Shown: piece after piece, positions 52,657-58,291 of the stretch
How the letters are laid out: each line of letters begins with the position of its first letter
Numbering within the stretch: the first letter of the stretch is position 1
Assembly (NCBI GenBank): GCA_963753595.1
Contig: CAVWCX010000036.1
Location: 128,001-192,000, forward strand
DNA from: Candidatus Methanoperedenaceae archaeon
GTDB taxonomy: Archaea; Halobacteriota; Methanosarcinia; Methanosarcinales; Methanoperedenaceae
Reading direction: 5' to 3'
DNA length: 64,000 nucleotides
The notes under the pieces: model-generated
The model's database searches: none
Told to the model about the DNA's origin: nothing
The model's input: only the letters and a program-made list of their open reading frames with translations
Position numbers and translations under genes: made by a program

Positions 52657-53289
52657 CTAACAACGGTTAATAATAGTACAGGGTCTTGCTGCATCCTTCT
52701 TTACATTTAGACTGCCCGGCAGCCTGATAAGTCTCACAATATCGGTTGTGATCGGGATATCTATCCCTACCCAATTTGGATTAATGATTTTCCTGCCATA
52801 TTTTGGTCTTATTATGTAGTGACCAAAAAAATCAGCAATCTCTCTGCGTTCCGGGGTATCCAGTTTTTGTACGCATTTGTCATATACGTGGATGTGATAC
52901 CCGCGGCTGCCTGAATCCACATAAAGGATGTCCTTGAACCCAAGCCGCTCTTCCAGTATCATCAATAACTTCTCACTCTGTTTCTTCGCTTCTCTGAGTG
53001 TCGGCTTTTCCAGATGGTCAAAATCAATATCGAAAATCAGATCTGCGCCTTCCCATCCCTTCTTCTTATCTTCCATTGGATAGGCGGCGGGGTCTTTATA
53101 CTTCGAGGACGAAAAGTAAACGTGATCCGGCGCTGTCTCAATGAGATAAGTCCTGAGTTTCTGTACTGATGAGAACGCCCTGTGTCTCACCATCTTTTCC
53201 CCATTTTTCCTGAACCCAAACTCCCTGCTTGTAAAGTCCGGCGGCTCATAGAGAGGAGCATGCCAATAATAATCAGAAATGCTGCTCAA
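52657..53289 (-). CDS. priS: DNA primase small catalytic subunit (compact PriS)
   Basis: REFGF...RHRAF, P.HVYFSS..Y..P, GADLIFDIDFDH, SGSRGYHIHV, IDIPITTD..RLIRLPGSLN. Confidence 0.93.
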   Translation of the reverse strand: MSSISDYYWHAPLYEPPDFTSREFGFRKNGEKMVRHRAFSSVQKLRTYLIETAPDHVYFSSSKYKDPAAYPMEDKKKGWEGADLIFDIDFDHLEKPTLREAKKQSEKLLMILEERLGFKDILYVDSGSRGYHIHVYDKCVQKLDTPERREIADFFGHYIIRPKYGRKIINPNWVGIDIPITTDIVRLIRLPGSLNVKKDAARPCTIINRC

Positions 53290-54344
53290 GATATCACCTT
53301 TTTAGTTTGCTTCTTGTTTTCCAACCACACCTTTCGCCTGTAGTATACCAGCGGGTGCACTATCTTCTTACACGATGCCTTTCCTGGACAATTACCATTA
53401 GTCGTCATAGTCGCGCAGGTCGGACAGGTATAAGCCGTTCCCGATGCGCCTGCGATGTGATTTATCTGATAATTGGTATCCTGTTCTTTGAAATCAGGCG
53501 ATGCCCTGAATATCTCTGTTATCTTCTCAGGCTTCATCCCTATATTCAACAGGAAGGTTGTCATTGCAAAGCGCATCGAGTGAGATAGATTAACATTTGC
53601 CTGGGCATCGGCTATTGCCGAGCTTATACACGGCGGGAAGCAACCTGAGCTCACTTCGCTGAATCCCTCTTTACTGAATCCCTGCTTATTTGTACGGATG
53701 CTGGCTGCTTCCTGCACCTCATTGATATACTGTTTCAGCGCTTCTTTTATTTCTTTCGGCACTTCATGAGGCAGTCCTAACTCCACCTTCTTCCGTACAA
53801 CCTCCTCCATCAGGCGCGCAAAGTCGCCTTTTGATATTGTCAGCATGCCCTCCTTTACTGTGCGGTTTGAAAGTTTCCACTTTGGCTCATGCAACACATG
53901 GGCATGGTGAATGTAATCTGTGAAGTGTATGGTAGCGCTCATGGTTCTGGCGTCTACTGTTGCGCTTATGCCAAAATCCGCTGCCAGTTCTCTCAGGTTA
54001 TCAGCCCTGAAATCCATAATGTGTTCGTATGACAATTTGGCCACTGCGAGGGCATATCTTTTGGTGAGATATGTATTGTTGATACTTGAAACGATTATCC
54101 TGGCGACTGGATAAGCCAGTAATTCCTTATTCGCAGCAAGTTTGTTATATCTTCGATATTTTAGTGTGCCGTTCTGCAGTGCTTCAAGGACACGCCCCTT
54201 AGCTGCCGATCGGACGCTTTCATAGGCCAGATCCGTACATACATCAGCCGAACCAACCCAAGATTCCTTCATATATTCCAGGGCGCCTGTGGTACAGGGG
54301 ATATTAGCAAAATCTATTATGTCCATTAGCCTCTCATATTTCAA
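53286..54344 (-). CDS. priL: DNA primase large subunit
   Basis: ELLAYPVARIIVS, WKLSNR.V..G, FPPCI, LSHSMRFA, PDF...T.YQI.HI.G, YTCPTC...GNC (Fe-S domain). Confidence 0.93.
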   Translation of the reverse strand: MKYERLMDIIDFANIPCTTGALEYMKESWVGSADVCTDLAYESVRSAAKGRVLEALQNGTLKYRRYNKLAANKELLAYPVARIIVSSINNTYLTKRYALAVAKLSYEHIMDFRADNLRELAADFGISATVDARTMSATIHFTDYIHHAHVLHEPKWKLSNRTVKEGMLTISKGDFARLMEEVVRKKVELGLPHEVPKEIKEALKQYINEVQEAASIRTNKQGFSKEGFSEVSSGCFPPCISSAIADAQANVNLSHSMRFAMTTFLLNIGMKPEKITEIFRASPDFKEQDTNYQINHIAGASGTAYTCPTCATMTTNGNCPGKASCKKIVHPLVYYRRKVWLENKKQTKKVIS

Positions 54345-54374: not shown

Positions 54375-54392
54375 GTATTACTACTGTAATAC
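54375..54392. promoter_or_regulatory. 18-bp operator-like palindrome abutting the TATA box of the primase operon
   Basis: GTATTAC-TACT-GTAATAC followed on the minus strand by TTATAT. Confidence 0.7.
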
Positions 54393-54614
54393 AACACCTC
54401 TTATCTTCCTTGGCACGATTCCCAGTTCTCTTGCCAGGTCTGCCGTCTCTGGATCGCTCACGCGCTCCCATGTCAGATTTACAGCTAACTTCAACTTACC
54501 CTGTGGTATCAATAACTTCTTTCCATGGTACTCTATTATCTCATAGGGGAAGGCACTTTTTTCTGATGCTTTCGCCAGCGCATGTAATTTTTTCTCGTTC
54601 TCAGGTAACATCAA
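54381..54614 (-). CDS. small hypothetical protein
   Basis: Coupled to the upstream stop; GGAGG RBS. Confidence 0.55.
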   Translation of the reverse strand: MMLPENEKKLHALAKASEKSAFPYEIIEYHGKKLLIPQGKLKLAVNLTWERVSDPETADLARELGIVPRKIRGVVLQ

Positions 54615-54891
54615 TCCTCCTTCAAGAGCATGATCGTAAGAATAGGTTCTGTATTATCCCCAGGACCGCAGATAGCCTTGAGATACACAGTTTCCATCTT
54701 TGGATTCCCCGCTTTCGAAGGCATCTGGAAAATAGTCTTGAAATATAGTGTTTGCGCCGTATCCTTCTGCGACTCTGCAACGTCTATATTTAACTTTTTC
54801 ATTGCCCTGGCGCTGAAGGAAAACATCGTAAGAACATCCCATAATCTGCCCTGCACGTCCTGGAAGCCTTTGAGGCTCTCCGGCGGCTCGA
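54611..54891 (-). pseudogene. 3' part of the intron-disrupted DUF6573-like gene
   Basis: EPPESLKGFQDVQGRLWDVL...LKAICGPGD..EPILTIML; joins in frame with 56910-57714 to give WNGYIEPP. Confidence 0.85.
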
Positions 54892-56909
54892 GTGTGCCTC
54901 GAAGCACAAGAAAGAAAGTATATAACAGGACATTTGAAGAGAATGTTACAGCGTGAGCAATAACATTTGGTGTCCGCGGGTTAAAATCCCTCCATTTGGG
55001 TCTGCTCCCGAATGAAGAGAAAGGGTAGTGCGATATCGCAAGATATGGTGCGGAGTACCCAAGTATCGTCAACCACAGCCCTAAACAACATGTGAACCGA
55101 AAGTGGCCTTAGCGCGATGCGACATCCCTCGAGTAGATGGAAGCTTGAGCAGTAAGTGAACGCTGGGGTGGTTACGGTAGGGATGGTTGAGAATGCTCTC
55201 TTGTGTGACCGGGGGAGGTCTCATAACGTCCTCCTTGAAATTGGATACAAACCCTACACGTTTCTGGGTAACTGGATTCCATCGAAAGGAAACAGGTAGC
55301 ATAGGTATAACCTTATGGGAAAGCCGAAGCAATGCGTTATGAGAAGTCCGACGAACCCATAGTAGCAATGAAGGTCAGGCCGAGGACATACAGAACCTGC
55401 GCCGCAGGGTACAGGAGGCGACTGTACGAGGACAAAACCAGACCCAGCAAAGGGGTTCTAGATTTGGAAAGAGTTGAGGTGAACAGCACGATAACATCAA
55501 TCGGATTCAAAGAAAACACCAGAAAAGTAAGCACAGTCAAAATGGCAATAAAGCGCTATCTGGTAAATGTATATGAAGATAATGGAATAACTGCTGGAAA
55601 CCAAAACCGATGGAGACAAAGATGAAAAAGTGGAATCAGCAATACCATGACAAATTCAAGGAATTTGCTCTGATACATAAGGTATGGAGCGAGAAGAACC
55701 TTGTTCAGGCATGGAAAAGCGTGAAGGCAAATAAAGGAAGTGCTGGAGTAGATGGAATAACCATTGAACAATTTGAACAAAATCTGCAACAAAACCTAAA
55801 TGAAATACACAGACTACTCAAAGAAAAACGCTATGAACCCAGGCCGGTCTTAAGGGTATTAATACCAAAAGACAACGGCAAGATGAGAAAACTTGGGATA
55901 CCCACAGTCAGGGACAGAGTAGTTCAACAGGCATTAAAGAACGTACTTGAACCAATCTTTGAAGAAATATTCCTGCCACAAAGCCATGGATACAGACCTA
56001 ACACTAACGCTCATGCGGCAGTCAGGAAGGGTGAAGTATTCATTAGAAGAGGCTACCACTGGGTAGTGGATGCCGACATTGAGGGATTCTTCGACCACGT
56101 TGACCATCAAATAATGATGGATCTTGTATGCGAAAAAGTCGCAGATGGCAGAGTTCTTTCTCTCATAGAATCTTTCCTTAAAAGTGGAATAATGAATGAT
56201 GGTGTATTTGAGGAGAGTATGGAAGGTACTCCCCAGGGAGGAAATATCAGTCCACTGCTGTCGAATATTTACTTAAATCACTTCGACAGAAGAATGGGGG
56301 ACTTTGGATATTTGCTCCTCCGATACGCTGATGACATCGTTATTTTCTGCAAGTTTGTATCAGATGCACAGGATGCACTCAAACGAGCAAAGGAAATTCT
56401 GGAAGGAGAATTAAAGTTAAAACTCAGTCCAGAAAAGACCAAAATCGCTCCTGCAAGAAGTAAGGGAGTTGAATTTCTCGGCTTCCGTTTCAATGGACGT
56501 TATAGAAGCCCAAGGGATAAGGCAAAGAAGAAGTTCAAGGAAGAGATAAAACGACGGACAAGGCGTCAGCAGCCTGTGAACCTTGAAACTGTAATACGTT
56601 TCCTCAATCCTGTAATTCGAGGTTGGGGGAATTATTTCAAGGAAGGTACAGTAAAGACATTGTTCAGTGAATTGGATGGTTATATAAGGGGACGCTTGAG
56701 GAGCTTTGAGGCTAAAAAGCGTAACTGGAACACCATTTTATTCACGCTTCCTGAGTCTGAACTGAGAAAAATGGGGTTGGCTTCACTTACTTCGTTGCTG
56801 AATGAACCTATCTCCTGCAAAGGGAAAAGCCAAACGAAAGCTGCATACGGGAAATCCGTTCGTGCAGTTTGATGAGGAGTAGATGGCGAAAGCCATCCGC
56901 TTACTCTAG
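54892..56909 (+). mobile_element. complete group II intron, inserted antisense to the host gene
   Basis: 5' GTGTG; EBS1 TCGAGT (55129-55134, in a CATC/GATG loop) pairs with IBS1 GCTCGA; DV AAGCTGCATACGGGAAATCCGTTCGTGCAGTTT; DVI with bulged A at 56903; removal restores a 362-codon ORF. Confidence 0.92.
55610..56872 (+). CDS. ltrA: group II intron reverse transcriptase/maturase, no En domain
   Basis: GSAGVDG, RKLGIPTVRDRVVQQA, DADIEGFFD, GTPQGG.ISPLLSNIYL, YADD, FLGF, domain X LNPVIRGWGNYF. Confidence 0.95.
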   Translation: METKMKKWNQQYHDKFKEFALIHKVWSEKNLVQAWKSVKANKGSAGVDGITIEQFEQNLQQNLNEIHRLLKEKRYEPRPVLRVLIPKDNGKMRKLGIPTVRDRVVQQALKNVLEPIFEEIFLPQSHGYRPNTNAHAAVRKGEVFIRRGYHWVVDADIEGFFDHVDHQIMMDLVCEKVADGRVLSLIESFLKSGIMNDGVFEESMEGTPQGGNISPLLSNIYLNHFDRRMGDFGYLLLRYADDIVIFCKFVSDAQDALKRAKEILEGELKLKLSPEKTKIAPARSKGVEFLGFRFNGRYRSPRDKAKKKFKEEIKRRTRRQQPVNLETVIRFLNPVIRGWGNYFKEGTVKTLFSELDGYIRGRLRSFEAKKRNWNTILFTLPESELRKMGLASLTSLLNEPISCKGKSQTKAAYGKSVRAV

Positions 56910-57714
56910 TGTAACCATTCCATAATGCCTGTGTGACCGCTGTTGGATATACTATACCGGCTTCTTTTGCAGTTTCAGTGACGTCCACAAGCACCCCATC
57001 TTCGATTGCTTGGGCGCGGGTGTAGACATCAATCACTTCTCCGAATACACTTTTTATCGATTGATCCCCTGTTTCAGCTTCAATATCCACGAAGGATGGC
57101 AGTTCATTTTTAGGTGCATCTATGGGTGACTCGATCTTTGGCTTTATTAGCGGCTCAAATGGCTTCGAGTAATCCCCGGATACTATCCAATCGACATATG
57201 CAGCCAGATTCTCCTTCCGAATGAAAGACTCGCCGAACCCCGGTTTGTTCATATTTGTGAACATATGCTCATTATAGAGAACAATAGGGTCATCCGCACC
57301 GCAGGTATCCGTTACTATATCGAACCCTGGGACTTTACCGGTAGCACTTATCTCGCACAGCTTCTGAAGGTTATCCGGTCCGACTTCATACCTTCTTGCC
57401 CAGACATCCATTGAATGTGTAATGCCGCGGGCGTAGAGAGAAACGATCTCCCACCCGGGACAGCCTTTCTTATGGTTATGATCCTCTAATAGTAGGTACT
57501 GGCCACCATTCGATGTGCCCAGTATGTAGTGATACTTATCAGAGGGATCCTCACAGAACGGTTCCAAGTCCACGATCTTGCCTGCATAATAAGCCGCAAG
57601 AACTTTCTTGCAATGTGGACACATATATGCGGATACGCACTGGAAGTCCACGGAGATTATGTCCCGCTTGTTCATATTATAAAAGTATATTCTATGGTTC
57701 TTTACTTCGATCAT
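56910..57714 (-). pseudogene. 5' part of the intron-disrupted DUF6573-like gene
   Basis: VIDVYTRAQAIEDGVLVDV...AKEAGIVYPTAVTQALWNGY stops at the intron boundary. Confidence 0.85.
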
Positions 57715-57992
57715 TCCCTCGCTCCTTTAATCATCATTTCAACTCTTGCTGGCTCTGGAACGAGTGTCATGTCCATTTCTTCTATCTCTTCCTGGCATTC
57801 CGGGCAGAAGTATCGTGGAGCCCCGTTGTTATCCGAGTTAAGATCGTATTCAATCTCCCTGCCTATGTTCATAACACCATGTCGCTCTTCTACCACTTCA
57901 ACATGGCTAATCTGAGCGAAGCAGTGCGGACAGTGGATGCTGGGCTTCTCACATGACCCTTTGAGAATTGGTGGAATGTCTTTCTTAACCAT
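57711..57992 (-). CDS. small Zn-ribbon protein
   Basis: CPHC...YFCPEC. Confidence 0.65.
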   Translation of the reverse strand: MVKKDIPPILKGSCEKPSIHCPHCFAQISHVEVVEERHGVMNIGREIEYDLNSDNNGAPRYFCPECQEEIEEMDMTLVPEPARVEMMIKGARE

Positions 57993-58218
57993 GGAGGACG
58001 CTCCTTTTCCCTATGCCCAAGACTTCGCGTACTTTCTGTGCTTCAATTATTATTTCATCCATACTGCTGTTGACCTGGGAGCGGAACTCTTCCAGATTCT
58101 CCGCGGATTCCAAAGCATCCAGTACATCCGACTTTATCATCTGTGCATAGTGCTTCAGTTCGTCTATCTGCATCTGGATGGTTTCCGGTAATTCTACATA
58201 TTTCATAGTGTTCTCCAT
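57985..58218 (-). CDS. small helical hypothetical protein
   Basis: First gene after hairpin copy 5; start at MENT or MKYV. Confidence 0.55.
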   Translation of the reverse strand: MENTMKYVELPETIQMQIDELKHYAQMIKSDVLDALESAENLEEFRSQVNSSMDEIIIEAQKVREVLGIGKRSVLHG

Positions 58219-58249
58219 TCGGTTTCGTAATTTTACTACTCCTTGTTTC

Positions 58250-58291
58250 CTGAACACGTCAGATTTCAGCACCGCAGTGCGAAATATGGCA
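58250..58291. repeat. 43-bp hairpin motif, copy 5
   Basis: CCTGAACACGTCA-GATTTC-A-GCAC-CGCA-GTGC-GAAATA-TGGCA. Confidence 0.85.

Follow-up and report, generated by a model that had tools for sequence, protein, structure and literature searches.

A Methanoperedenaceae group II intron that ends in AG and probably carries an inverted γ-γ′ pair

Group II introns are described in a review as 5′-GUGYG...AY-3′ elements (Y, pyrimidine) in the vast majority of cases; the part of that review available to us lists shifted splice sites and not AG ends. The last intron base, γ′, pairs with γ, a base of the J2/3 linker between domains II and III, and canonical examples of this γ-γ′ pair are known from ai5γ, from P.li.LSUI2 (A420 with the 3′ end), from the class IIC intron E.r. 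(A327-U638), and from RmInt1 (G-C). The accessible text of the RmInt1 paper gives γ as a purine, names A-U and G-C as the frequent natural pairs with no mention of C-G, and reports smaller defects in mutants that retain a Watson-Crick pair than in mismatched ones. We found no natural AG-ending group II intron and no natural C-G γ-γ′ pair in the literature; the curated bacterial group II intron database or article supplements may list such ends. Here we describe an intron located in a 64,000-nucleotide (nt) stretch, hereafter the window, that covers positions 128,001 to 192,000 of contig CAVWCX010000036.1 (assembly GCA_963753595.1, Candidatus Methanoperedenaceae archaeon). The element occupies window positions 54892-56909 on the plus strand and is very probably a retromobile intron that ends in AG because its γ-γ′ pair is inverted to C-G, catalysis being otherwise ordinary.

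As in canonical group II introns, in the sources available, the branch-point A lies 6-7 nt from the intron end, and J2/3 has the layout γ-G-A of P.li.LSUI2 (A420-G421-A422; the E.r. intron has A327-G328-C329). Unlike the published pairs, in which γ is a purine and the end is AY, γ is a C in the window and the intron ends in AG. A survey assigns archaeal intron proteins to the clades bacterial-C, bacterial-D, CL1A, and CL1B; its accessible text contains no occurrence of Methanoperedens and no discussion of intron boundary sequences.

Intron ends and empty alleles

The intron is 2018 nt long and runs from 5′ GUGUG (GTGTG at 54892-54896) to CUCUAG 3′, with the terminus CTTACTCTAG stopping at 56909. 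Its domains V and VI match the Rfam model RF00029 at 56836-56910 over the full model length (1-77), scoring 44.6 bits (gathering score, 40; E = 3.5e-6), and no Rfam D1-D4 model matched between 50000 and 64000 at E values up to 1. The element encodes a reverse transcriptase (RT)/maturase without an endonuclease domain. It is a real group II intron and not a chance match. The 5′ end of the window copy conforms to GUGYG; the 3′ end departs from AY, but with this departure compensated at γ, as detailed below, we keep the element among the group II introns.

Both ends were examined in alleles lacking the insertion. A protein search of 61 related genomes with the N-terminal part of the interrupted host gene found close homologues in six others, and eight loci (L003, L004, L005, L007, L008, L013, L015, and L016) in five genomes of the same genus proved to be empty. 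In the host sense, these alleles read ...TGGAATGG(G/T)TACA|TCGAGCC..., which is the window sequence minus 54892-56909, and they translate as W-N-G-Y-I-E-P-P. The bases flanking the insert differ from its own terminal bases, so the placement of the insertion cannot slide. A ninth close homologue (L006, G030:C49) was uninformative, as it carries about 30 extra bases exactly at the insertion place and has a shorter open frame (308 amino acids). The joint 54891|56910 was also present in contigs from one public DNA run (two contigs) and two RNA runs (one contig each). Given its presence in the DNA run, we regard these joints as empty alleles and not as evidence for splicing. None of the public runs, all of which are contigs, contains more than 0.40 of the sampled words.

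The initial annotation had set the 5′ boundary at GTGTG from the pairing of exon-binding site 1 (EBS1) with intron-binding site 1 (IBS1) and the 3′ boundary after 56909, and the empty alleles agree with both. IBS1 (GCUCGA, GCTCGA in DNA) forms the last six nucleotides of the 5′ flank (54886-54891) and is complementary to EBS1 (UCGAGU, 55129-55134). The alleles read GYIEPP and not GYLEPP, the reading that the annotation had associated with a boundary shifted by 1 nt. Its further proposal that removal of the intron restores the host frame is right for the DNA, where taking the insert out leaves a frame of 1086 nt (3104 - 2018) through W-N-G-Y-I-E-P-P. It does not extend to splicing of the host mRNA: the host open reading frame (ORF) lies on the minus strand, antisense to the intron, and the gene is therefore split by an intron that is not removable from that mRNA.

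The RNA could also be cut at a 3′ splice site other than the DNA boundary, for example after the AC at 56904 or after U56910, with an incidental match to the empty site. Retrohoming inserts exactly the excised RNA, and the insertion boundary is exact in all eight empty loci. Moreover, AC-ending relatives align with the window copy base for base, C replacing G, and the spacing between branch A and intron end is constant in all copies; in the window, the bulged A is A56903, the seventh base from the end with six nucleotides after it, as the initial annotation had noted. On the other side, the review records displaced 3′ splice sites for other group II introns, and the Rfam alignment reaches 56910 with A56908 treated as an insertion. 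We consider a displaced RNA 3′ splice site highly improbable.

Covariation between J2/3 and the last intron base

A DNA search detected matches of the intron family in 37 of the 49 genomes of the genus. Alignment A1 comprises 16 full-length copies; its consensus fold was computed with RNAalifold, and its columns were mapped to window coordinates. In the fold, a 4-nt unpaired J2/3 separates domain II (55215-55348), whose helix in columns 330-344 with 457-471 has 13 pairs with five changed on both sides, from domain III (55353-55458), which opens with the basal helix GAACC/GGUUC. J2/3 thus reads CGAC at 55349-55352, with γ at C55349 and the conserved GA at G55350-A55351, which bears out the earlier assignment of CGA at 55349-55351 to this linker. 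The remaining parts comprise domain I (54897-55214), which contains EBS1; domain V (56838-56870), with an AGC triad, a GAAA-type loop, and 13 pairs, four of them changed on both sides; and domain VI (56874-56906), with the bulged branch-point A and a 3-bp basal helix. The boundaries of domains V and VI follow the Rfam alignment, domain VI also following the consensus fold. Overall, the consensus structure holds 171 pairs, 71 of which are changed on both sides, and 98.0% of its 2732 cells are standard pairs, compared to 89.6% after shuffling and 35-41% when partners were slid. Given the slid controls and the many compensatory pairs, the predicted structure is sound. Domain III varies among copies: L040 has GAGCCC/GGGCUC as its basal helix, and the full-length copy L030 carries an insertion of about 85 nt inside this domain (A1 columns 550-633).

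In A1, γ (column 472) and the last base (column 2151) are G and C in 13 copies, C and G in three, and unpaired in none. The comparison was extended to 28 complete copies including the window, full-length as well as ORF-less, for which the 5′ end, the J2/3 motif, and the 3′ end were all found. Of these, 24 combine γ G with a final C, and three (window, L017, and L018) combine γ C with a final G. The remaining one, L019 copy 2, is uninformative, as an AG-subfamily intron nested one base before the older intron's end supplies its apparent final G. Position 55349 hence covaries with the last base in 27 of 27 informative complete copies. The same state is visible in fragments belonging to the same 93-97% identical subfamily: C occupies γ in the 5′ fragments L019 copy 1, L020, and L057, and the 3′ fragments L046 to L049 end in UAG. 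The proposal of an AG end compensated by a C at γ is therefore upheld, and AC-ending copies, which the initial annotation would have taken as contradicting it, do exist but carry G at γ, as expected from covariation. During the second step of splicing, C55349 probably pairs with G56909.

The linker contains a second C three bases away from γ, and the last G might pair with C55352, or with no base at all, 55349 having changed for another reason. However, base 55352 is C, A, or U among C-ending copies; varying this freely, it is not the partner of the last base. Position 55349, on the other hand, covaries in every informative copy and again in the bacterial lineage described below, and γ-G-A is the architecture known from the published introns available. 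We thus attach very little weight to a different partner of the last base.

A scan for the domain VI motif ending in UAG, restricted to one genome per species, returned at least 119 loci. Among the matches listed, four are from Methanoperedens/Methanoperedenaceae and 115 from Paenibacillus, Cohnella, Thermobacillus, and other Bacillota; in these 115, the base following UAG is T in 46, A in 44, C in 23, and G in two. Of the 27 listed bacterial matches with 1700 nt of clean upstream sequence, 16 have GGAGUC[C]GA at 1400-1560 nt from the end, and the remaining 11 have no match to this motif, none of them showing another γ base. The full-length bacterial copies start with GCGUGCC directly after a hairpin-plus-T-run terminator. 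In one Paenibacillaceae genome, a terminator-bearing repeat occurs at about 10 places, some filled and some empty with abutting flanks; the empty repeats and the variable base before GCGUGCC in other copies fix the bacterial ends as GCGUG...UAG. This Paenibacillaceae lineage (L066-L184 and L187-L202) is about 1915 nt long and shares the GCGUGCC start, the C at γ, and the UAG end.

In five Paenibacillus genomes, 12 UAG ends and two UAC ends were found. One UAC-ending copy, L191, is divergent, contains an interruption of about 1.2 kb, and carries G at γ. The UAC ends were at first considered as 5′-truncated copies (L185 and L186), a reading discarded when longer sequence revealed the interruption in L191 and a second copy, L192, without a 5′ part. 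Motifs with a base other than C at γ were about as frequent in the five genomes as matches to a reversed-pattern control, except for the L191 place. The Paenibacillaceae RTs are 43% identical to the window RT and sit on a very long branch of the RT tree. The combination of C-G pair and AG end is thus old and common in a bacterial relative, and the archaeal family acquired it separately. More than 100 matches and empty sites in the Paenibacillaceae lineage make the original description of a rare natural variant an overstatement.

Direction of the change and spread of the AG copies

A maximum-likelihood tree of the RTs was rooted with the Paenibacillus sequences; L017 and L031, whose ORFs are broken, were left out. 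The window copy and L018 together are sister to the G-C copy L021 (support 100/98), and this trio lies within a G-C clade of eight rows (100/98). As the C-G copies are nested among G-C copies, the C-G state is derived and arose by two substitutions on one branch.

The AG copies have spread to different sites. They are followed by seven different 3′ flanks (window, L017/L119, L018/L082/L131, L046, L047/L172, L048, and L049) and preceded by six different 5′ flanks. Across copies, the EBS1 loop and the 5′ flank covary, and the AG copies each have their own EBS1/IBS1 combination, namely UCGAGU/GCUCGA in the window, UCGAAU/AUUCGG in L017, and UAGAGAA/UUCUCUA in L018. Seven sites with matched EBS1 loops indicate that the inverted form kept moving, and this movement presumably took place by splicing and reverse splicing at exactly the bond 56909|56910.

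We propose the following course of events. The RNA of an intron lineage abundant in this archaeal genus would have used the 6-bp EBS1-IBS1 pairing to reverse-splice into the plus strand, a few bases downstream of a sequence able to form a hairpin. As this strand is antisense to the DUF6573-like gene, the gene is split. In this subfamily, the single Watson-Crick pair that positions the 3′ splice site, γ in J2/3 with γ′, would have been inverted from an ancestral G-C with an AC end to C-G with an AG end. Catalysis would otherwise be ordinary, relying on the AGC triad of domain V, the GA of J2/3, and a bulged A followed by six nucleotides.

Several observations weigh against this proposal. The consensus structure and the pair counts were derived from the same alignment, which favors the structure. 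A scan of A1 columns 1-720 for complementarity to the first 3′-exon base, as expected for EBS3, gave no clean column; the candidate column 250 (12 Watson-Crick pairs, three G-U, and one mismatch) was rejected since it is itself within a helix. All archaeal C-G copies form one clade, so the covariation within the family amounts to one evolutionary event and not several. L022 (G035:C62) presents the sole G/G mismatch seen, with γ G and ...CUCCAG at its end; the contig stops before the 5′ end of this copy, whose broken ORF has a longest frame of 258 amino acids. L017, an AG copy, has a frameshifted ORF. No further copy besides the window's own was found in this genome, and the window copy, single and antisense within a gene, may be inactive. 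Finally, evidence of splicing was sought in the public runs, where only joined forms that also occur in a DNA run were found.

Taken together, the last of these points could be accommodated by an AG end that is real as DNA in a subfamily that is dead. C55349 and G56909 would then be unrelated substitutions in decaying copies, spread by other means than their own reverse splicing; the frameshift of L017, the G/G combination in a broken L022, the solitary copy in this genome, and joined forms that do not demonstrate spliced RNA all fit such a scenario. However, both changes are common to every copy of the subfamily in which the positions are visible, the copies occupy seven distinct sites with an EBS1 loop matched to each copy's own 5′ flank, the window copy and L018 have an intact RT ORF, and all 16 Paenibacillaceae copies in which the motif was found, among the matches listed, retain the C/G combination. 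A dead subfamily is therefore improbable, if somewhat less so than a different splice site or pairing partner. L022, whose ORF part is 92% like that of the window copy but whose J2/3 region is 81% like it, may have arisen by decay or recombination, or its true end may lie one base further on.

We return to the inverted pair in a mobile intron and to observations that touch on its mobility. A single contig of RNA run X15, with a depth of 3.9, connects ...UUUUACUCUAG (56879) directly to GCGUGCC (54894), and thereby an intron 3′ end to a 5′ end. This head-to-tail junction can equally be read as an excised RNA circle or as a tandem DNA insertion, the latter because copies of the family have also inserted close to the 3′ ends of other copies. 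No junction of this type was found in the 49 genomes of the genus, whose repeats may have remained unassembled. In L019 (1779-2620, minus strand), an adjoining intron sits 1 nt before the last base of another copy; in L060 and L063, it sits 2 nt after that base. Domain VI and the tail may mimic the stem-loop target and so yield tandem or nested introns.

The family also varies at its ends and in its coding capacity. Many derivatives lack an ORF (L036-L043 and L059-L064); they measure 736-849 nt, with one of 1182 nt, retain domains I-III, V, and VI, and all have γ G and a C end. A clade ending in UGC instead of UAC includes L026, L052, and L053 on the tree (95/90), and L061 and L062 have the same end. 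The first base is U instead of G in L052, L053, and L062, in which EBS1 pairs with a flank ending in ...GACU, whereas L026 combines G1 with UGC and L031 combines U1 with UAC. The first and penultimate nucleotides of group II introns are known to interact, and the U1/UGC pattern may reflect their covariation.

Considered jointly, these variants may point to a stem-loop-targeting lineage that tolerates and repeatedly fixes splice-site changes, an idea we advance tentatively and hold to be somewhat short of an even chance. Such changes would include the C-G inversion, which was seen a single time in Methanoperedens and is the rule in Paenibacillaceae; C for U at position 2; and U1 with the UGC end in one clade. 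The window copy would then have reached GU...AG from a GC...AC ancestor while mobile, and if the X15 junction is an excised circle, AG copies would have been excised exactly at this bond in nature.

Intron class, host gene, and implications

The protein encoded in domain IV (55610-56872, plus strand) has 420 amino acids with a YADD motif and matches RVT_1 (1.3e-36), GIIM (4.5e-18), and TIGR04416 (419 bits against a cut-off of 300). Its closest solved chains are the IIC maturase 7uim (272 bits) and the GsI-IIC RT 6ar1 (262 bits), ahead of LtrA (156 bits) and the 6me0 maturase (147 bits). RT scores thus favor IIC maturases among solved members, classes D, E, and F having no solved member for comparison.

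A 5′ stem-loop in the target is described, in the source available, as unique to IIC introns. In the window, an imperfect stem-loop (GUC-CUGGA-AGCCU / AGGCU-C-UCCGG-C-GGC, 54857-54887 by RNAfold, plus strand) ends 4 nt upstream of the intron, and the upstream 45 nt fold with -16.3 kcal/mol (z = -1.0 against shuffles). For the family, excluding L023 (short flank) and L060 (nested), the mean fold energy of 45-nt flanks is -15.1 kcal/mol upstream versus -5.5 kcal/mol downstream, and -10 kcal/mol or lower is reached by 21 of 25 upstream flanks versus 1 of 25 downstream flanks. The stem-loop precedes family copies by 4-12 nt, and insertion just downstream of such a structure is described for IIC introns.

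The lineage therefore resembles IIC introns such as B.h.I1, O.i.I1, GsI-IIC, and the E.r. intron in its RT without an endonuclease domain, in its closest solved chains, in the upstream stem-loop, in the hairpin-plus-T-run terminators preceding its Paenibacillaceae relatives, and in the 3-bp basal helix of domain VI. In contrast to IIC introns as described in the accessible literature, the domain V triad is AGC and not CGC, with a distal stem of 4 bp here, and EBS1-IBS1 comprises 5-7 bp (window, L017, L018, L021, L026, L050, and L053) instead of 3-4 bp. ORF-less derivatives of about 740-850 nt and the lack of an Rfam D1-D4 match further set the lineage apart. Because of the AGC triad and the 5-7 bp EBS1-IBS1 pairing, we refer to it as IIC-like and do not place it among the canonical IIC introns. 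Like the introns of archaeal Methanosarcinales, the family has a Halobacterota host and includes nested or adjoining copies (L019, L060, and L063). Nesting is reportedly typical of Methanosarcina introns.

A GU start, an AG end, and a bulged branch A are also features that the window copy shares with spliceosomal GU-AG introns. Among the 32 related copies listed, 27 start with GCGUGCC and four with UCGUGCC; as the window copy alone has GUGUG, it is the sole GU...AG copy, and its AG sister copies are GC...AG. Unlike the case of spliceosomal introns, for which this is not reported in the sources available, the AG is here read by a Watson-Crick pair with J2/3. The link to 3′ splice-site evolution drawn in the initial annotation accordingly holds for the shared AG letters and not for the mode of recognition, which is that of an ordinary γ-γ′ pair: the resemblance lies in the letters only.

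The interrupted host gene consists of an N-terminal part at 56910-57714, which continues into the antisense strand of the intron up to a stop at 56680, and a C-terminal part at 54611-54891, both on the minus strand. A Pfam DUF6573 match runs across the break and continues in the C-terminal part (profile positions 73-138), and intact homologues in related genomes are open frames of 365-366 amino acids. All genes around the intron, PriS- and PriL-like ORFs and the interrupted gene among them, lie on the minus strand. The host gene adjoins two genes that resemble PriL and PriS, the PriS-like one being short (210 amino acids against profiles of 323-391; window 52657-54344 and 54381-58272, minus strand). 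DUF6573-like genes have a patchy distribution, occurring in 10 of 36 other genomes of the genus searched and four times in G025. The neighborhood may be that of a mobile or viral element.

While reviews, in the parts available, give GUGYG...AY with a purine at γ, the family described here is a natural lineage with an inverted C-G pair at the 3′ splice site, a direction of change resolved on a tree, and signs of continued mobility of the inverted form. It provides natural confirmation of the γ-γ′ pair, and its wild-type alleles (G-C, C-G, and UGC-ending copies) are readily usable in studies of second-step splicing. Annotation may place the ends of this lineage wrongly when it relies on intron finders built around AY or GUGYG. 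The same AG state is common in a bacterial lineage, so that it is neither specific to archaea nor a rarity, which tempers the evolutionary reading. If the joint reading of splice-site drift is true, these variants together would represent a natural allelic series for drift of the 3′ splice site from AY to AG in an archaeal host.

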